DNA of 6,513 nt, from positions 1 through 6,513 of the IMG/VR virus record IMGVR_UViG_3300045988_000319. The stretch is one strand, 5' to 3'. Under the pieces are notes generated by a model. The model did no database searches. It was not told where the DNA came from and saw only the letters and a program-made list of their open reading frames with translations. The DNA comes from a virus. The translations under genes were made by a program, and so were the position numbers. Below, one piece after another: positions 1-6,513 of this stretch (positions are counted from its first letter, which is position 1; each line of letters starts with the position of its first letter).

Positions 1-55
1 CTGTTTCTGCTCGTCAGTCTATGGTTGCCCGGATTAATAATGCTGATGTTGCTTC
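1..55. repeat. Terminal overlap copy 1, identical to 6459-6513. This is the circularisation signature of an assembled circular genome.
   Basis: Base-by-base comparison: ctgtttctgctcgtcagtctatggttgcccggattaataatgctgatgttgcttc occurs at both ends. Confidence 0.95.
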
Positions 56-839
56 CTTCTCTATTCTTGCCCTTCGTCAAGCTGAAGCTCTTCAGAAATG
101 GAAAGAGATTACTCAATCTGTAGATACTAATTATCGCGACCAAATCAAGGCCCATTTTGGTATTAATACCCCTGCTTCTATGTCTCATATGGCACAATAT
201 ATTGGCGGTGTTGCTCGTAACCTTGACATTTCTGAAGTTGTAAACAACAATCTTTATGAAGACGGTTCTGAAGCTGTTATCTACGGCAAAGGTGTTGGTT
301 CTGGTTCCGGTAAGATGCGTTATCATACTGGTTCACAGTATTGTATTATCATGTGTATTTATCATGCTATGCCGCTTTTGGATTATGCGATTTCAGGTCA
401 AGATCCTCAATTGCTTTGTACTTCTGTAGAAGATCTCCCTATTCCTGAATTTGACAATATTGGTATGGAAGCTGTTCCGGCTACTACCCTCTTTAATTCT
501 AATCGCTTTAATGGTACGTCTACTGCCGATTTCGTTGGTTACAATCCTCGTTATTGGCCTTGGAAATCTAAGATCGATCGTGTCCACGGTGCGTTTATTA
601 CCACTCTTAAAGATTGGGTTGCTCCTATTGATGATGATTATTTGTATAAATGGTTTACTCCTAAGCAGGGCAAGTCTTCTTCTATTTCTTGGCCATTCTT
701 CAAAGTAAATCCGAATACTTTGGATTCTATCTTTGCTGTCGCTGCTAATTCTATTTGGGAGACTGATCAGCTTTTAGTTAATTGTGATGTTTCATGTAAG
801 GTTGTTCGTCCTCTTTCTCAGGATGGTATGCCTTATTAA
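1..839 (+). CDS. VP1: Major capsid protein VP1 (phiX174 F-like), C-terminal portion. Continues from 5429..6513 across the circular junction. The first complete codon in this window starts at nt 3.
   Basis: The reading frame is open from nt 3 to the TAA at 837-839. It is in phase with the ORF starting at 5429 once the 55-nt terminal overlap is collapsed (6479 = 21, and 6479-5429 = 1050, divisible by 3). The joined product is 622 aa. Its N-terminus, MAHFTGLKELQNHPHKAGFDIGSKNLFTAKVGELLPVYW, resembles the conserved start of microvirus capsid proteins as I remember them. Codon use is strongly NNT-biased, as in the other structural genes. Confidence 0.92.
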   Translation, partial: VSARQSMVARINNADVASFSILALRQAEALQKWKEITQSVDTNYRDQIKAHFGINTPASMSHMAQYIGGVARNLDISEVVNNNLYEDGSEAVIYGKGVGSGSGKMRYHTGSQYCIIMCIYHAMPLLDYAISGQDPQLLCTSVEDLPIPEFDNIGMEAVPATTLFNSNRFNGTSTADFVGYNPRYWPWKSKIDRVHGAFITTLKDWVAPIDDDYLYKWFTPKQGKSSSISWPFFKVNPNTLDSIFAVAANSIWETDQLLVNCDVSCKVVRPLSQDGMPY

Positions 840-850
840 TATTATTCGTT

Positions 851-1372
851 ATGGAAAAAAGAAATTCAAATAAAGTTTGTTTTGGTTGTGGGTTCCGTAA
901 GGTAGACCTTTCTATTTCTGCTGTTGGATTTAATCCTGCTCTTTGTGAAAAGGAAATAGCTGTTGAAATCGATCCTGTTTCTAAGTTTTGCATTGAAACG
1001 ATTGGTGAAGCTGAGGATAAATATTATCGTTATCGTTCCGATATCTCTATGTTACTCCATGCTAAGGATACTGCTAATAAGATTGGTGTTGAAGGATTAC
1101 GTTATCTTTCCGAGTCTCGTAGGACAAAAACGTCTGCTATTCAATCTCAGTTGGATCAAATGGATGATCAGCTTCTTTTGGATACTGTTAAGTCTCGTCA
1201 TTTGCAGTCCCCTGCTGAAATTCTTGCTTGGTCTGAAAGTTTAACTCAGGTAGCTCACGATCTTGAAACTCGTGCTGGTGCCGAAGCTCGTAAAAAATAT
1301 GATGAGGAAATTGCTGCCGCTGCTGCTGCTAGTAGTAGTTCTTCTTCTGGATCATCTGATTCAGTTGAATGA
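851..1372 (+). CDS. Hypothetical 173-aa acidic protein with an Ala6-Ser6 low-complexity tail. Its position between VP1 and VP2 suggests an internal scaffolding (VP3-like) role, which is unproven.
   Basis: An ATG lies 12 nt after the VP1 stop, and the ORF fills the whole VP1-VP2 gap. It shares the NNT codon bias of its neighbours. The start context GTTATGGAAAAA is shared with the ORF at 3385. I recognise no catalytic motif. The function is inferred from gene order only. Confidence 0.7.
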   Translation: MEKRNSNKVCFGCGFRKVDLSISAVGFNPALCEKEIAVEIDPVSKFCIETIGEAEDKYYRYRSDISMLLHAKDTANKIGVEGLRYLSESRRTKTSAIQSQLDQMDDQLLLDTVKSRHLQSPAEILAWSESLTQVAHDLETRAGAEARKKYDEEIAAAAAASSSSSSGSSDSVE

Positions 1373-2495
1373 TAATTTTTTGATTCTGTCTGGTCCTTCA
1401 GATATTTTAAATTCTGTTGGTCTCGGTCTTGGCGCTGTTTCAGGTATTGGTAATATTTTTAGTTCTATTCATTCTAATTCTCAGAATATGAAGATTAATA
1501 GGATGAATAATGAGTTTAATGCTCGTGAAGCAGAGAAAGCTCGTCAATATCAGACTGAAATGTGGAATAAGACTAATGAGTGGAATTCTCCTAAGAATGT
1601 TCGTAAGCGTCTTGAAGATGCTGGATATAATTCTTATTTAGGATTGGATTCTTCTAATGTTGGTACAGCTCAGAGTGCTGGATCTTCTTCTCCTGCTTCG
1701 GCTTCTCCTCCTATTCAGAATAATCCTGTTCAGTTTGATGGCTTTCAGAATGCGATTTCGACCGCTGTTCAGATGAGTAATTCTACAAAGGTATCTAATG
1801 CAGAAGCTAATAATCTTCAAGGTCAAAAAGGTTTAGCTGATGCCCAAGCTGCCGCTACTCTTTCTGGTATTGATTGGTATAAATTTTCTCCTGAGTATCG
1901 TAATTGGTTACAAACTACCGGTATGGCTCGTGCTCAATTGTCTTTCAATACTGATCAGCAGAATCTTGAGAATATGAAATGGATTAATAAAATTCAACGT
2001 GCTCAACGCACTGATATTCTTTTATCTAATGAGGCTAAACGTACTATTAATAAGTATCTGGATAATTCTCAATCCTTACAGTTGAAATTGATGGCTAATC
2101 AGGCTTTTCAGGCTTTTGCTTCTGGTCGTTTGTCTCTTCAGCAGGCTAAGACTGAAGTCACTAAACAGTTTATGAATATGGTTGAAACCGAAGGTAAGAA
2201 GATCTATAATAGAATTGCTTCTGAGACGGCTGATCAATTGATTGGTGCTCTTCAATGGCAGTATTCCTCTGATGAAATGTATTCTCGTGGTTATGCTGGC
2301 TATGCTCGTCAAGCTGGCCAATCTCGTGGAAAAGGAGATATTGCTAAAGGTCAACTTGATGAGTATGATTATGGTGCTCGTTATTGGAATACTGGTATAG
2401 AGTCTATTGGTCATATTGGTAATGGTATTGGTCTTCCTTTATTGTTTGGTCGTGGTCTTCGTGGTCCACAGTCTATAAAAGGTTTCCGTCGCTAA
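1299..2495 (+). CDS. VP2: Minor capsid / DNA pilot protein VP2 (phiX174 H-like). The start is uncertain: ATG 1299 or 1302, or TTG 1263 or 1380.
   Basis: A Gly-rich N-terminal segment (GLGLGAVSGIGNIF) is followed by NEFNAREAEKARQYQTEMWNKTNEWNSPKNVRKRLEDAGYNSYLG. This resembles the conserved VP2 block of goku- and alpa-type microviruses as I remember it. A long heptad-like, Q/N/K-rich central region fits a coiled-coil tube. The stop TAA is at 2493-2495. The track ORF begins at TTG 1263, and the first ATG is at 1299. Confidence 0.88.
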   Translation: MMRKLLPLLLLVVVLLLDHLIQLNDNFLILSGPSDILNSVGLGLGAVSGIGNIFSSIHSNSQNMKINRMNNEFNAREAEKARQYQTEMWNKTNEWNSPKNVRKRLEDAGYNSYLGLDSSNVGTAQSAGSSSPASASPPIQNNPVQFDGFQNAISTAVQMSNSTKVSNAEANNLQGQKGLADAQAAATLSGIDWYKFSPEYRNWLQTTGMARAQLSFNTDQQNLENMKWINKIQRAQRTDILLSNEAKRTINKYLDNSQSLQLKLMANQAFQAFASGRLSLQQAKTEVTKQFMNMVETEGKKIYNRIASETADQLIGALQWQYSSDEMYSRGYAGYARQAGQSRGKGDIAKGQLDEYDYGARYWNTGIESIGHIGNGIGLPLLFGRGLRGPQSIKGFRR

Positions 2496-2516
2496 TATTT
2501 GTCATATTATTAATTT

Positions 2517-2580
2517 GCTCCGCGTGGATGTTTCTATAATCGTCCAGATTATAGAGATTTCCCACCGGAGCTTTTTTATT
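2517..2580 (+). terminator. Compound stem-loop followed by a T6 tract: a likely intrinsic terminator or mRNA-stabilising hairpin after the structural gene block.
   Basis: The outer stem pairs gctccg (2517-2522) with cggagc (2566-2571). The middle stem pairs gtgg (2524-2527) with ccac (2562-2565). The apical 8-bp stem pairs tctataat (2533-2540) with attataga (2548-2555) around the loop cgtccag. A TTTTTT run follows at 2572-2577, 22 nt downstream of the VP2 stop. Confidence 0.6.
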
Positions 2581-2660
2581 GTTATTCATTATTCTATTAA
2601 TATTGTCTTATATATTGTATTCCTATACTTCTGTTATACATTTTTGTTTTCATTTCCTTC

Positions 2661-3067
2661 CCGGGACGTCTTGTCAACTTTGTTGACGTTTGTCACCTTC
2701 CCCTTTATTGCCGGTAGCAATGAAATTGCGTTTATAGCGCGAGCGACAAAAAAGGGTTCTAGGGCTTTGCCCTAGAGCGTTAGCACCTTGATATCGCCAA
2801 AGGCGCATTCGCTTTAGCGAACACTTCTGTCCTTAATCGGTTTCTTAAGGTTGCTGTCCGTTTGTCTTATCGCAGAGTTCACTCCCTGTAAAATTAAAAA
2901 AAAAATAGCGGCGAGTCCGCCAGATGTTTTACGAAGTAAAACTAATCTATGATAGCTTCATAGTCGGATGGTTTATTCTTGGCGAAGCCTATTTCATTTT
3001 TCCCGAAGGGTAATTACTTTATCTTAGTAATTACTCTCTATCCTTGTCATATATACGAAAAATGACA
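2661..3067 (+). other. GC-enriched, hairpin-dense noncoding island: a candidate ssDNA complementary-strand origin or structured RNA. Its function is unknown.
   Basis: No plausible ORF lies on either strand. About 13 local inverted repeats are present. (1) 2673-2687 gtcaac/ttt/gttgac. (2) 2717-2729 gcaat/gaa/attgc. (3) 2756-2778, core ctagggc/ttt/gccctag. (4) 2795-2805 cgcc/aaa/ggcg. (5) 2808-2821 ttcgc/ttta/gcgaa. (6) 2831-2850 ccttaa/tcggtttc/ttaagg. (7) 2910-2921 ggcg/agtc/cgcc. (8) 2926-2942 gttttac/gaa/gtaaaac. (9) 2947-2963 ctatga/tagct/tcatag. (10) 2981-2989 ggc/gaa/gcc. (11) 3002-3010 ccc/gaa/ggg. (12) 3010-3034 gtaattac/tttatctta/gtaattac. (13) 3045-3067 tgtcat/11-nt loop/atgaca. A hand count of 2761-2820 gives 32/60 G+C, well above the AT-rich coding sequence. 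Confidence 0.6.
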
Positions 3068-3108
3068 CACCCCCCCTAATACATAACTTTATTCATAATA
3101 TAAGTTAA

Positions 3109-3116
3109 TAAATTTG
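3109..3116 (+). promoter_or_regulatory. Bacteroidetes-type -7 promoter element TAAATTTG (consensus TAnnTTTG), upstream of the 3147 / 3385 / VP4 gene block.
   Basis: An exact TAnnTTTG match sits 31 nt upstream of ATG 3147, in an AT-rich stretch at the end of the noncoding region. There is no exact TTTG -33 box; only CTTTA lies near 3087-3091. The motif is short, and several chance matches are expected in a T-rich 6.5-kb genome (one at 728-735 lies inside VP1). Support therefore comes mainly from position. Confidence 0.4.
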
Positions 3117-3146
3117 CTAGTTACGATTATTTTCCACTAGTTTTAC

Positions 3147-3368
3147 ATGTCTAAAAAAAAAGTTATGAAAATTACAGCTACTCAGTGGATTGAAATCGTT
3201 AAATTGATTGCCACATTTGTTATTGGTGTTATTACCACATTGTTTGTTCATTCTTGCACCCTTTCTTTGTCTGTTGCTAAGAATAATACTAACTCTACTC
3301 AAAAAACTGAGCAGACATCTACTTCATCTGTGGATTCTACTCATATCAATATTAATCCCAAGTACTAA
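3147..3368 (+). CDS. Small (73 aa) membrane-anchored or lipoprotein-like protein. Function unknown.
   Basis: It is the first ORF after the candidate promoter. The N-terminus is basic (MSKKKVMK) and is followed by a hydrophobic segment, IEIVKLIATFVIGVITTLFV. This is followed by HSC (Cys37, a weak lipobox) and a 36-aa Ser/Thr/Asn-rich tail. A second in-frame ATG lies at 3165. I recognise no homology. Confidence 0.6.
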   Translation: MSKKKVMKITATQWIEIVKLIATFVIGVITTLFVHSCTLSLSVAKNNTNSTQKTEQTSTSSVDSTHININPKY

Positions 3369-3384
3369 TTTAAATTTTATTGTT

Positions 3385-3576
3385 ATGGAAAAACAAGTAT
3401 TGAAGAAAGAAGAAAAAACTTTTGTGAATGGTTTTATCGTTTCGGTTCAGTTGCCCGGTATTCCACCGAAACAGTCCTTTGTGCACACTTCTGATGCTTT
3501 AGCAAGAACTATTTCTTCTGTTCTTGACTCTACCCCTCATGCTATTATTTTGGTTCAAGCTTCTGTAAATCTCTAA
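3385..3576 (+). CDS. Hypothetical 63-aa protein (MEKQVLKKEEKTF...).
   Basis: The ATG at 3385 lies 16 nt after the previous stop. It has the same GTTATGGAAAAA start context as the 851 gene. The ORF ends in a tandem TAA TAG (3574-3579), 1 nt before the VP4 ATG. The upstream part of the 3208-3576 track ORF overlaps gene 3147-3368 and translates as a Leu-rich off-frame artefact. Confidence 0.55.
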   Translation: MEKQVLKKEEKTFVNGFIVSVQLPGIPPKQSFVHTSDALARTISSVLDSTPHAIILVQASVNL

Positions 3577-3580
3577 TAGC

Positions 3581-5416
3581 ATGATACCTAAGGAAGAATT
3601 ATTAACGAAATACCTTTTTACTGAGTGTCTTAGGCCTCAGAGAATTGTGAATCCTTATTCTCATGATGTGATATTTGCTCCGTGTGGACATTGTAAATCA
3701 TGTATTATGAATAAGTCGAATTTTGCTACGGCTTATGCCATGAACATGGCTACACATTTTAAGTATTGTTATTTCGTTACTCTTACATATAAGGACATAT
3801 TTCTTCCTTACTTGTCCGTCGAGGTTGTTCGGAGGTCTGGTAATCGTTACCTCTTTGATGAAAACTTTGAGACAATGGTTTCCACTTCCGACCCTCGACT
3901 TTTAACTCCTGAATATTATCATGATCGCGACCTTTCCCTCGATCCTGCTCAGAATGAAGTTGAGCAAGTTTTTGATATAGGTTTTCAATCTATTCCTAGA
4001 GATGTTTCCGTAAAATCAAAAGGATCATTTCGTTTTCGTTCCTTTGATGATGACCCCCTAAAGTTTTGCATACCTATGAAACTTACTGAACTTCAGGATA
4101 TTTTGATTAAGGCTAATGGTCGTTATGATTATGGTAAGAATAAAGTAGTTTATCCTTCTCTTGCTGATTGTAAGCTACAGATACCTGTTCTTCAATCTCG
4201 TGATATTGAATTGTTTTTTAAGCGTTTACGAAGAAATTTAGATTCTCATGGATTCACTTCCTCGAAAATATGTTACTACGTTGTATCAGAATACGGACCC
4301 CAAACTTACCGTCCGCATTGGCATTGTTTATTATTCTTTGACTCGGAAGAGATCACCAAAACACTTCGAGAAGATATATCTAAGGCTTGGTCCTACGGTC
4401 GTATCGATTACTCTCTCTCCCGTGGAGCGGCTGCTTCCTATGTTGCGTCATATGTTAATAGTGCTGCTTGTTTACCATTCCTTTATGTTGGACAAAAAGA
4501 AATCCGCCCTCGATCCTTCCATTCCAAGGGATTTGGCTCGAATAAAATCTTTCCTAAATCGTCCGACGTTTCAGAAATTTCAAAGATATCCGATCTCTAC
4601 TTTGATGGCGTTAACGTCGATTCTAATGGGAAGACTGTCAACATCAGGCCTGTACGGCAGAGTGAGCTTACGGTATTCCCCCGATTCTCTAATGATTTTT
4701 TCTCAGATTGTGATACTTGTTGCAAGTTATTTCAGTCTGTCATTGAAACACCCAAACGCCTCGTTTCGCGCGGCTATCTTGGAATAGACACTCTTGATTT
4801 TGGTTCCGATGGTTTTCGATTATCTGATCTCGTACGTGCTTATTCTGAATACTATGAGCGGAATTTTACCGACTTTTCATTTAGCCTTCGTTTCCTTAGA
4901 GGTTATCGAACTCGTGATTATGCTGATGAATTGATATTTCGTGAGGCACGTCTTTTTGATGGTTATGTATTCAATAAAGATATGATTTTTGGTAGATTGT
5001 ATCGTTTATTTGCTAAAGTCCTTCGTTGTTTTAAGTTTTGGAATTTGAAACAATATACTGATTCTTGGTCTTTAAAGGCTGCTATTAAGAAAATTTGGTC
5101 GCATGGATGGGAATATTGGAAAAAGAAAGAATATCGTTTCTTAACTACCTATTTTGAGTATCTCGAAGGCTGTAACGACGACGAACGCTTGTTCCTTTTG
5201 GTTCGTACTTCAGGTTCTGGTCTTGCTACTGATTCTCCTCATTCCTGGACTTATACTCAGCGTGAAGATTATGTAAATTGTCTTCCTGATGATCTTTATA
5301 AGCGTTATATGAATACTCTTAAATGGTTGACCGCCCGCACGGAGAAGGTCTTGAAGGATAAGGTCAAACATAAAGAGTTTAATGATATGCAAGGTGTTTT
5401 ATTATTTTCTGATTAA
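3581..5416 (+). CDS. VP4: Replication initiation protein VP4 (phiX174 gpA-like HUH rolling-circle endonuclease), 611 aa.
   Basis: An N-terminal Cys cluster reads PCGHCKSC (aa 34-41). Motif I is FVTLTY (aa 65-70, nt 3773-3790). The basic block FFKRLRR spans aa 212-218. The HUH motif is RPHWHCLLF (H246/H248, nt 4316-4324). The catalytic tyrosine pair is YVASY (Y287/Y291, nt 4439-4453). Confidence 0.95.
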   Translation: MIPKEELLTKYLFTECLRPQRIVNPYSHDVIFAPCGHCKSCIMNKSNFATAYAMNMATHFKYCYFVTLTYKDIFLPYLSVEVVRRSGNRYLFDENFETMVSTSDPRLLTPEYYHDRDLSLDPAQNEVEQVFDIGFQSIPRDVSVKSKGSFRFRSFDDDPLKFCIPMKLTELQDILIKANGRYDYGKNKVVYPSLADCKLQIPVLQSRDIELFFKRLRRNLDSHGFTSSKICYYVVSEYGPQTYRPHWHCLLFFDSEEITKTLREDISKAWSYGRIDYSLSRGAAASYVASYVNSAACLPFLYVGQKEIRPRSFHSKGFGSNKIFPKSSDVSEISKISDLYFDGVNVDSNGKTVNIRPVRQSELTVFPRFSNDFFSDCDTCCKLFQSVIETPKRLVSRGYLGIDTLDFGSDGFRLSDLVRAYSEYYERNFTDFSFSLRFLRGYRTRDYADELIFREARLFDGYVFNKDMIFGRLYRLFAKVLRCFKFWNLKQYTDSWSLKAAIKKIWSHGWEYWKKKEYRFLTTYFEYLEGCNDDERLFLLVRTSGSGLATDSPHSWTYTQREDYVNCLPDDLYKRYMNTLKWLTARTEKVLKDKVKHKEFNDMQGVLLFSD

Positions 5417-5428
5417 CTAATTTAATTT

Positions 5429-6513
5429 ATGGCACATTTTACTGGTTTAAAAGAACTTCAAAATCATCCCCATAAGGCTGGTTTTGATATTGGTAGTAAA
5501 AATTTGTTTACTGCTAAGGTAGGTGAATTGCTTCCTGTCTATTGGGATATGGCAATTCCTAATTGCGATTATGATATTGATTTGGCTTATTTTACTCGTA
5601 CTCGTCCCGTTCAGTCTGCTGCTTATACTCGTATTCGTGAGTATTTTGACTTTTATTCCGTTCCTTGTGATCTTCTTTGGAAATCATTTGATTCTGCTGT
5701 GATTCAGATGGGACAAATTGCCCCTGTTCAATCTAAGACTTTACTTGACCCTCTTACTGTTGGAACTGATATTCCTTGGTGTTCTCTTTTGGACCTTGGT
5801 AGAGCTATCTATTATTCTTCTGGTTCTGCTCCGTTAGGTTCTACTGTTTCAGTTACTTCTAAATTTGGTAACATTTTTGATTATAATAGAGGTGATACTT
5901 CTCATAAGTTACTTTCTTATCTTAATTATGGTAATTTAGTAAATCCCTCCGCTTCTGAGGTTGGCTCTTCAGCAAATCGTTGGTGGAACACTTCTTTTAC
6001 AACTTCTGGCGTTCAAAACTATTCTCAGAAGTATTTGAATAACAATGCTGTTTCTCTTTTCCCGCTTTTGGCTTATCAGAAGATTTATCAGGACTTCTTC
6101 CGTTGGTCGCAATGGGAAAATGCTGATCCTACGGCTTATAATGTAGATTATTACGCTGGTTCTGGTAATTTATTTGGATCTTCTGGTATTTCTGTTTCTA
6201 TTCCTAGTGGTAATGATTATTGGAAACGTGATAATATGTTTTCTCTTCGTTATTGTAATTGGAATAAGGACATGTTTATGGGTCTCCTTCCTAATTCCCA
6301 GTTTGGTGATGTAGCAGTCGTAAATTTAGGCGATTCTGGTTCCGGCACAATTCCTGTTGGATTCCTTTCTGATACGGATGTATTTACCCAAGCATTTAAT
6401 GCTACTGCTATGAAGACCGCTTCGGATACGTCTCCTATGGGTATTTCTGGTTCTACTACTGTTTCTGCTCGTCAGTCTATGGTTGCCCGGATTAATAATG
6501 CTGATGTTGCTTC
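5429..6513 (+). CDS. VP1: Major capsid protein VP1, N-terminal portion. It runs off the right edge and continues at nt 1 after the 55-nt overlap is removed.
   Basis: The ATG at 5429 lies 12 nt after the VP4 stop. I translated the frame by hand to the window end and found no stop. It is absent from the ORF track only because it lacks an in-window stop. It joins in phase to 3..839. Confidence 0.92.
   Translation, partial: MAHFTGLKELQNHPHKAGFDIGSKNLFTAKVGELLPVYWDMAIPNCDYDIDLAYFTRTRPVQSAAYTRIREYFDFYSVPCDLLWKSFDSAVIQMGQIAPVQSKTLLDPLTVGTDIPWCSLLDLGRAIYYSSGSAPLGSTVSVTSKFGNIFDYNRGDTSHKLLSYLNYGNLVNPSASEVGSSANRWWNTSFTTSGVQNYSQKYLNNNAVSLFPLLAYQKIYQDFFRWSQWENADPTAYNVDYYAGSGNLFGSSGISVSIPSGNDYWKRDNMFSLRYCNWNKDMFMGLLPNSQFGDVAVVNLGDSGSGTIPVGFLSDTDVFTQAFNATAMKTASDTSPMGISGSTTVSARQSMVARINNADVA
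6459..6513. repeat. Terminal overlap copy 2, identical to 1-55.
   Basis: The same 55-mer as at 1-55. It lies inside the VP1 coding sequence, so it is not a biological terminal repeat. Confidence 0.95.

Follow-up and report, generated by a model that had tools for sequence, protein, structure and literature searches.

A portable multi-hairpin module of Bacteroides microviruses as a candidate complementary-strand origin

The 6,513-base window analyzed here (IMG/VR record IMGVR_UViG_3300045988_000319, positions 1 to 6,513; all coordinates refer to it, and L-numbers designate loci of the comparison set) is a circular microvirus genome with a gene-free region at positions 2496-3146. Within this region we found a module of about 165 nucleotides (nt), made up of several hairpins around an invariant unpaired stretch, which recurs in microviruses that share little else. 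Together with its flanking hairpins, the module is proposed to be a portable complementary-strand (second-strand) origin, an initiation signal that would fold in the packaged single-stranded DNA (ssDNA), a reading to which we give a probability of about 50%. New here are this module family, its spread among Bacteroides microviruses, and the implications of its orientation.

A module shared by otherwise unalignable genomes

When the window was compared with GenBank phages by blastn, only positions 2729-2903 were matched (77-79% identity); in Tortoise microvirus 13, Dulem virus 218, and rat microviruses, whose genomes are otherwise unalignable with it, the matches fall in gaps that lack annotation. 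By pattern scans, the module was located in 37 contigs of IMG/VR and 96 from metagenomes, of which almost all measure 5.5-6.5 kb (one further pattern, TCCTTAAN{60,88}CCCTGTAAAATTAAAA, had the wrong gap length and gave a chance match only). These copies, designated class A, number 139, with 106-113 distinct ones according to which stretch is used for comparison. A covariance model of the module, R1, which scores the window copy at 171 bits (E = 8e-39), uncovered a diverged class B in Dulem viruses 244/245, MT837631, PV067927, OP549868 (vaginal), OM869569, and ON840045, and a further scan added 20 more class B contigs. In total, about 190 microvirus contigs of 5.5-6.6 kb from gut, oral, and vaginal samples carry the module core, and a 60-nt stretch is invariant among genomes that cannot otherwise be aligned. 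The module lies after the pilot gene, after the capsid gene, between open reading frames (ORFs) of 153 and 361 amino acids (aa), or after the replication protein (Rep) gene, and is always intergenic.

A 20-mer scan over the genomes of 185,579 bacterial species found no module, with one chance match in Azomonas. With Rfam 15 the whole window gave no match in the gap at E values up to 10, and the element alone reached chance level only (13-14 bits against gathering scores of 50-70). ARAGORN detected no tRNA or tmRNA in the window, and our literature search on the module sequence and on structured RNAs of microviruses returned nothing relevant.

The core of the module is formed by four hairpins, H1-H4, around the invariant GA-GCGTTAGC-ACCTTGATAT:

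2734-2895, + strand: multi-hairpin module of about 165 nt, proposed complementary-strand origin cassette, defined by covariance model R1, its homologues, and covariation
2758-2776, + strand: H1, TCTAGGGC-TTT-GCCCTAGA; the top pair varies among C-G, T-A, A-T, and T.G
2777-2794, + strand: invariant segment, the mini-hairpin GCGTTAGC (2777-2784) followed by unpaired ACCTTGATAT
2795-2805, + strand: H2, CGCC-AAA-GGCG; 100% paired in 52 sequences
2808-2821, + strand: H3 in its short form, TTCGC-TTTA-GCGAA; 98% paired, with covariation at 7 of 9 pairs
2831-2850, + strand: H4, CCTTAA-TCGGTTTC-TTAAGG; only 83-89% paired in a column-wise count

The segment 2777-2794 was unchanged in 98 distinct class A copies, with five single variants over all matches, and we propose it as the putative recognition and priming site. 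Around it, the helices vary while remaining helices. In class B, H1 is built of wholly different paired sequences (e.g., GAGGGC..GCCCTC or GGACG..CGTCC), and H4 is kept as a hairpin of unrelated sequence (e.g., GAAC..GTTC or CTTC..GAAG). H2 occurs with five stems (CGCC/GGCG, CGGC/GCCG, CGAC/GTCG, CTCC/GGAG, and CGGTC/GACCG), its loops often being GAA, GGA, or GTA. In most relatives H3 takes a long form, TACC-A-CGACC..GGTCG-GGTA, of which there are more than 40 paired versions with the bulged A conserved.

The fold is maintained by compensatory change and selected on one strand

Among 41 sequences aligned with MAFFT, 94% of the cells were paired and 32 cells had changed on both sides, compared with 6.3 ± 2.2 in shuffles; the covariation score was 0.101 against 0.050 ± 0.004, and none of 500 shuffles scored as high. 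A larger alignment of 52 sequences from both classes, fitted to the covariance model and thus biased towards structure, had 91.6% of its cells paired, changes on both sides at 17 of 29 pairs, and 143 compensated cells against 38 ± 4.7 in shuffles; its covariation score was 0.262 versus 0.095 ± 0.006 (0/500 as high), with slid controls reaching 0.061 at most. As an independent count, we followed the reference Watson-Crick pairs of H1, H2, H3, and two downstream hairpins in gap-free length classes and found 34 double changes. Single changes to G.T numbered 18 on the element strand and 0 on the other, and no other mismatches occurred. Since the changes that produce G.T are confined to the element strand, the fold is selected on one strand only.

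The minimum free energy (MFE) of region 2661-3067, computed with RNA and DNA parameters and compared with 100 shuffles, agrees with a density of hairpins above chance:

RNA parameters, + strand: MFE -118.3 kcal/mol; shuffles -94.8 (sd 5.6); z -4.19; 0/100 as good
RNA parameters, - strand: MFE -113.6 kcal/mol; shuffles -91.6 (sd 5.7); z -3.83; 0/100 as good
DNA parameters, + strand: MFE -56.8 kcal/mol; shuffles -40.5 (sd 3.8); z -4.25; 0/100 as good

A preliminary description of this DNA, made from its letters alone, had claimed this excess of hairpins, which the shuffles (z about -4) bear out, and had suggested a conserved structured element occupying the 651 nt. Homologues do exist, compensatory changes in them are abundant, and the element folds beyond shuffles, but what is conserved amounts to about 165 nt (2734-2895) plus flanking hairpins. 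The long-range pairing of 2701-2709 with 2748-2756, also put forward there, did not hold, having no counterpart in L011, L017, and L026, where the sequence upstream of 2734 is unrelated; nor is the multi-branch closing helix suggested at that stage conserved. We also rejected a closing helix CAGGG/CCCTG, which is 82-86% paired, lacks clean covariation, and conflicts with a 14-bp hairpin in L028. The pairings ACCTT/AAGGT and TAGC/GCTG suggested by RNAalifold have one-sided variants that are uncompensated, and L149 lacks AAGGT.

Mini-hairpins of the kind found at priming sites

According to a 2026 review of DNA mini-hairpins, phage G4 has GCGAAAGC at the primase primer site for the complementary strand, where St-1 and alpha3 have GCGTTAGC; CCGAAGG occurs in ssiA of RSF1010, and GCGGAGC-type hairpins occur in the single-strand promoters of N4 (PMC13037366). 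The St-1/alpha3 form GCGTTAGC is found exactly at window positions 2777-2784 and is invariant in class A, while its alpha3 copy lies at 5048 in the origin hairpin of the G-H intergenic region. The H2 variants CGGCGAAGCCG, CGCCGAAGGCG, and CGGCGGAGCCG are comparable to CGGCGAAAGCCG of G4, CCGAAGG of ssiA, and GCGGAGC of the N4 promoters. Further mini-hairpins are GTTTTAC-GAA-GTAAAAC, GGCGAAGCC, and CCCGAAGGG in the window and GGCGAAAGCC in L004 and L173. In 146 distinct 450-nt regions, C-GNA-G triloops outnumbered the complementary C-TNC-G by 122 to 9, despite the strand being T-rich, and the window has three C-GNA-G hairpins in the gap versus one in the other 5.9 kb.

Overlapping the mini-hairpin, CACCTTGATA (2784-2793) is identical in 9 of 10 positions to the gpA cleavage decamer CAACTTGATA (position 1002 of alpha3), which phiX174 shares. 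A mimic of the 16S rRNA 3' end was considered, as AAGGTAGC(C/T)GT resembles the rRNA linker, but was abandoned given that the block is not conserved in class B.

The module is always on the T-rich strand

Relative to the genes, the module is antisense in 86 of 116 genomes and sense in the remaining 30, whereas it lies on the T-rich strand in 116/116. (An earlier, narrower pattern had given 24 sense and 86 antisense among 110 unique complete genomes; of the 139 copies, 108 are antisense.) The base composition of the coding strand at four-fold sites separates the two groups completely:

Module sense to the genes (n = 30): T.661, A.130, G.090, C.119
Module antisense to the genes (n = 86): T.138, A.635, G.123, C.104

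The antisense group is thus the base-for-base complement of the sense group, with non-overlapping ranges. Coding sequences annotated in GenBank agree, with T.60 in alpha3, which is known as a positive-sense phage, T.66 in the window, and A.63-.72 in PV067927, OP549868, and OM869569. An A-rich-coding clade (63-72% A at four-fold sites; L001, L003, L150, L152, L153, and more than 80 others) stands against the ordinary microviruses with 60-71% T. Host codon preference does not explain the mirrored bias, because both groups infect the same host (see below).

ssDNA phages are T-biased at third codon positions, under C-to-T pressure on the single (viral) strand (PMC3278643). The simplest reading of the four-fold sites is then that the T-rich strand would be the packaged strand in both groups. 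If so, the strand that bears the module is packaged in every case, and for the antisense clade this is the non-coding strand. We put even odds on the module being a strand marker of this kind and the large antisense clade being negative-sense, packaging the strand complementary to its mRNAs. The proposed negative-sense clade, from gut, oral, and vaginal samples, would comprise Tortoise microvirus 13, Dulem virus 218, PV067927, OP549868, OM869569, and their relatives.

The module is exchanged and lost among phages of one host

In the lineage of the window (Rep at least 95% identical), module cores are just 74-96% identical. L026 has a Rep 95.7% identical to that of the window, but its core is 93.6% identical to that of L069, a member of the antisense clade, and only 77.4% to that of the window. 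Because the L026 core is closer to L069 than to the window, the module has been exchanged between lineages while staying on the T-rich strand. Near-identical modules accompany Rep proteins of about 325, 497, 551, and 611 aa.

The module can also be missing. In L142, a near-isogenic relative of the window (Rep 95.4% identical, with the same upstream region), about 45 unrelated bases stand in place of the core, and block 2979-3146 is present twice; positions 5860-6486 of this contig hold two tandem copies of a GGCGCAGCC..CCCGAAGG..GTAATTAC block and no module core. Nothing within three mismatches of the 13-mer CACCTTGATATCG was found in the whole sequences of L142, L144 (Rep about 95% identical), L147, and L148, and R1 found no module copy in the relatives L147 and L148.

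The host was assigned from L012 (IMGVR_UViG_3300008060_000094), whose positions 4290-9250 hold a type II-C CRISPR locus that encodes Cas9 and Cas1 and has 66 copies of a 47-nt repeat, differing by one base from the B. fragilis repeat BfragL47. At least 25 of its 65 spacers match microviruses of the set, 8 match the window, and 2 hit the conserved module. As this Bacteroides-type array carries spacers against the window and many loci of the set, its sequence identifies the host as Bacteroides.

An origin of the module in the host genome, or a role as attP, was rejected, the module being absent from the bacterial genomes scanned and the prophage copy in L085 having its integration point elsewhere in the phage genome. 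In L085 (1-10369) a module-bearing relative of L028 adjoins bacterial gyrA and a tetratricopeptide repeat gene, with the look of an integrated microvirus prophage or possibly of a chimeric contig. In two longer contigs, L051 and L102, capsid-pilot-Rep genes that are joined to unrelated DNA precede the module, which is at most about 250 nt from the end of the contig; the shared module may break or mis-join assemblies.

A proposed complementary-strand origin and its alternatives

A strand-specific fold, orientation with the putative packaged strand, origin-type mini-hairpins, an invariant unpaired stretch, sharing irrespective of Rep, and dispensability together argue for a complementary-strand origin. 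After entry, the viral strand would be coated with the single-stranded-DNA-binding protein of the host; the H1-H4 cluster and the GCGTTAGC mini-hairpin would remain folded on the coated strand and would expose the invariant ACCTTGATAT to a host priming enzyme, either the Bacteroides primase or RNA polymerase, which would then synthesize the primer for the complementary strand. A partner among host proteins, rather than Rep, would account for a module that serves unrelated Reps, can be exchanged or lost, and is always on the packaged strand.

Several points weigh against this proposal and the polarity that goes with it. All the evidence in this study is computational. Wobble pairs, whether G.T or G.U, do not tell ssDNA and RNA apart, and DNA folding of the single sequence gave equal energies on both strands and hence no discrimination. 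Searched against alpha3, R1 gave nothing significant (best 9.9 bits, E = 0.096, elsewhere in the genome), and homology to the alpha3 origin is limited to the 8-mer GCGTTAGC; the module is therefore no member of the coliphage origins by descent, and our claim is that it works like one. We know of no microvirus that packages its non-coding strand, and found no literature on negative-sense microviruses. The module was placed independently only a few times, roughly 4-6, which makes the 116/116 rule less strong than it looks. L142, known from one contig, may be a defective genome, and most microviruses are without the module, so that other origins must exist.

The module could instead be a free-standing, horizontally exchanged non-coding RNA gene of 170-300 nt, transcribed from the element strand, antisense in most carriers; its RNA would display the invariant 16-nt segment to a protein or RNA of the host, for instance as a decoy or counter-defense factor. 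Strand-specific wobbles and strong covariation suit RNA equally well, variable helices around invariant junction bases are typical of functional RNAs, and the module is accessory and swapped among lineages. In the window it is preceded by an operon terminator and followed by hairpins and U-rich stretches, and every class B lineage inspected has an AT-rich stretch with weak -10-like hexamers before the structured start. Antisense orientation by itself also favors an RNA with its own transcription, given the usual assumption that microvirus virions contain the coding strand; an antisense-RNA gene was our leading reading on that ground and was given up after the four-fold-site analysis. Such a gene leaves unexplained both the T-rich-strand orientation in all 116 genomes and the mirrored codon bias of the antisense clade. 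The loops of the module are mostly DNA-stable GNA triloops rather than tetraloops of the GNRA or UNCG kind, GCGTTAGC belongs to the DNA mini-hairpin motifs, and there is no Rfam match even for the element alone. Space for signals of its own is also scarce, with about 23 nt from the upstream terminator T-run to the module in L011, leaving little room for a promoter, and none in L028, where the module is wedged between two genes. The phage mRNAs have no complementary target beyond chance, and regulation of phage genes was rejected as the sense-orientation genomes show no complementary site beyond chance length (7-9 nt). An RNA anti-CRISPR mimicking the CRISPR repeat was likewise dropped, since local alignment to three B. 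fragilis repeats was no better than to shuffled repeats. On balance we consider an RNA gene unlikely, though worth keeping in view.

More doubtful is a plus-strand origin, in which Rep, an HUH endonuclease, would nick CACCTTG/ATATCG in the invariant segment, single-stranded between H1 and H2, with TAGCACCTTGATATCG as the candidate cleavage sequence. CACCTTGATA is one base off the 10-position gpA site CAACTTGATA, the orientation rule is in keeping with a nick site, which would likewise be needed on the packaged strand, and the module adjoins Rep in the antisense clade. However, the motif is absent (three or fewer mismatches of the 13-mer) from L142 and L144, with Reps about 95% identical, and from L147 and L148, while near-identical modules serve Reps of the four sizes given above. 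The similarity to phiX174 ends after the decamer, the rest of the 30-nt origin being unmatched, and R1 scores only 3 bits at the plus origin of alpha3. That the region holds no dedicated element, only terminators, promoters, chance hairpins, or the remnant of a decayed gene, is scarcely tenable: terminator-like structures do occur (the compound hairpin with T6 and several hairpins beside T-runs), and the left 240 nt are poorly conserved, but the idea is already contradicted by the cross-lineage conservation of the 60-nt stretch and by compensatory changes in four helices, and no credible ORF, PHROG match, or codon periodicity survives in the region, where indels break the frames.

The remainder of the gap and the genome

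Compared with the close relatives L011, L017, and L026 (Rep 96% identical to that of the window), the gap splits into four parts of different conservation:

2496-2733: no counterpart in L011, L017, and L026; common only to one close relative, L142
2734-2895: conserved core, the sole part kept across lineages
2904-2975: hairpins, swapped for other hairpins in relatives
2979-3146: almost identical within its own lineage and conserved only there

The features outside the core are as follows:

2517-2577, + strand: compound hairpin followed by T6, outside the conserved module
2578-2733, + strand: AT-rich tract in which TATTGT occurs three times, along with three small hairpins; conservation confined to the sub-lineage (L142; not L011, L017, or L026)
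2673-2687, 2717-2729, and 2726-2742: the small hairpins of this tract, GTCAAC-TTT-GTTGAC, GCAAT-GAA-ATTGC, and TTGCG..CGCGA, respectively
2884-2905, + strand: 3' flank CCCTGTAAAATT, then a run of A10; near-invariant in class A
2906-2963, + strand: three flanking hairpins, at 2906-2922, 2926-2942 (GTTTTAC-GAA-GTAAAAC), and 2947-2963 (CTATGA..TCATAG)
2979-3146, + strand: lineage block, with the two GAA mini-hairpins GGCGAAGCC (2981-2989) and CCCGAAGGG (3002-3010)
3010-3034, in the lineage block: inverted repeat GTAATTACT / AGTAATTAC, 9 bp with a 7-nt spacer
3045-3067, in the lineage block: hairpin TGTCAT..ATGACA
3070-3076, in the lineage block: C7 run (C7-8 across relatives), then an AT-rich stretch before the ATG at 3147

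In the compound hairpin, GCTCCG (2517-2522) pairs with CGGAGC (2566-2571), enclosing TCTATAAT (2533-2540) and ATTATAGA (2548-2555), and T6 follows at 2572-2577. It is the same in L142, and L011 and L017 have an unrelated hairpin with T8 at that place. It is likely the intrinsic terminator of the capsid-scaffold-pilot operon. The 2884-2905 flank contains a CTG, the start triplet of E. coli primase, which may have that role here. At the position of the three flanking hairpins, other lineages have GTCCGT..ACGGAC and GTTTTCG..CGAAAAC, and these replacements show eight compensatory changes, with five changes to G.T on the element strand versus none on the other. Read on the minus strand, positions 2894-2922 (the hairpin 2906-2922, then T10 from the A10 run) resemble a strong intrinsic terminator, although no minus-strand gene is known there.

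The block 2979-3146 is nearly identical in L011, L017, and L026, relatives with the 611-aa Rep, and duplicated in L142. A GGCGA(A)AGCC...CCCG(N)AAGGG pair like that of its mini-hairpins recurs downstream of the module in L004, L149, L154, L160, and L173. Since it is conserved only with this Rep lineage, the block may be a better candidate for the Rep (plus-strand) origin, together with an early promoter. Apart from the module, the gap thus appears to hold ordinary phage housekeeping, that is, a predicted operon terminator and a lineage-specific control block.

A terminal repeat of about 53 bases (1-53 = 6461-6513) fits an assembly overlap of the circular genome, whose genes are all on the + strand:

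5429, wrapping round to 839, + strand: major capsid protein
851-1372, + strand: 173-aa protein
Ending at 2495, + strand: pilot protein (PHROG match)
3147-3576, + strand: ORFs of 73 and 63 aa, the next ATG ORF after the gap starting at 3147
3581-5416, + strand: 611-aa Rep (PHROG match)

The only ORFs inside 2496-3146 are one of 86 aa starting with TTG (2515-2775) and one of 44 aa on the minus strand. Neither matches a PHROG family, one-base indels in relatives disrupt both frames, and the gap has no codon periodicity. The preliminary description was thus right in seeing no credible gene there, and the decayed gene that it had named as a possible alternative was not found; its placing of the compound hairpin with T6, of TATTGT at 2577, 2601, and 2613, and of the C7 run agrees with the sequence. 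An additional ORF of 179 aa (4248-4787, +1 frame) lies within the Rep gene, and ORFs of equal length occupy the same place in L011, L017, and L026; it could be an overprinted gene, the relatives being too alike to decide.

Relation to known replication signals and significance

The closest parallels are the complementary-strand origins (oric) of the Bullavirinae G4, St-1, phiK, and alpha3. Like these, the module is non-coding, intergenic, and on the inferred viral strand; its stem-loops H1-H4 are adjacent, stable, and evolutionarily maintained; and it has GCGTTAGC, the St-1/alpha3 form (GCGAAAGC-type in G4), at the presumed recognition site. Origins of the G4 type are recognized by host, not phage, enzymes. 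Unlike them, the module has no alignable homology beyond the 8-mer and has another architecture, with four to five hairpins; its host is Bacteroides rather than E. coli; it is exchanged among distant lineages and missing in close relatives; and its priming role is a proposed one. The preliminary description knew of no characterized structured element of this size in this phage group. This holds for the family, while the kind is precedented in Microviridae by these four origins.

The plasmid single-strand origins (sso; ssoA and ssoU) and the minus origin of M13/fd are structured non-coding cassettes of 150-300 nt with one functional orientation relative to the displaced strand, host-specific, interchangeable among replicons with unrelated Reps, and not strictly essential; viable deletions of the M13 minus origin reportedly exist. 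The module shares these four properties, as illustrated by its orientation, the L026/L069 exchange, and the deletion in L142. These origins are read by RNA polymerase as a folded promoter, with an RSB site and a terminal-loop CS-6 (TAGCGT/A) in the ssoA type. In class B, TAGCGT or TAGCGA stands beside the invariant stretch, outside a terminal loop, resembling over just 6 positions the CS-6 hexamer of ssoA.

Like ssiA/ssiB of RSF1010 and the n' (PriA) site of phiX174, the module would recruit a priming system through a hairpin signal in ssDNA, and the CCGAAGG heptamer of ssiA occurs in H2 variants and at window positions 3003-3009. However, the primase that reads ssiA is encoded by the plasmid, the n' site consists of one hairpin of about 55 nt, and the sequences are unrelated. 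The plus origin of phiX174/alpha3 agrees with the module at 9 of 10 positions of its cleavage decamer, on the inferred packaged strand, but the rest of the 30-nt origin is unmatched, and phages whose Rep is nearly the same lack the module. Conserved junction bases and covarying helices are also found in orphan structured RNAs of phages and gut bacteria in Rfam; the module differs in having no Rfam 15 family match, and its loop types and orientation rule point to DNA.

In the human gut, microviruses rank with the most abundant phages, and outside the coliphages the signals by which their ssDNA is converted to a duplex are essentially unknown, so that the module provides a concrete candidate in the phages of Bacteroides. 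Its invariant 16-nt tag is a practical marker, already present in some 190 known contigs, and its distribution shows that genomes of 6 kb can pass a non-coding function from lineage to lineage. Annotation and codon-usage work on ssDNA phages now assumes positive polarity, and the orientation of the module together with the mirrored codon bias makes genome polarity directly testable. If the reading proposed here is true, second-strand origins circulate as exchangeable cassettes among the phages of one host, and a negative-sense clade would overturn the rule that Microviridae are positive-sense.

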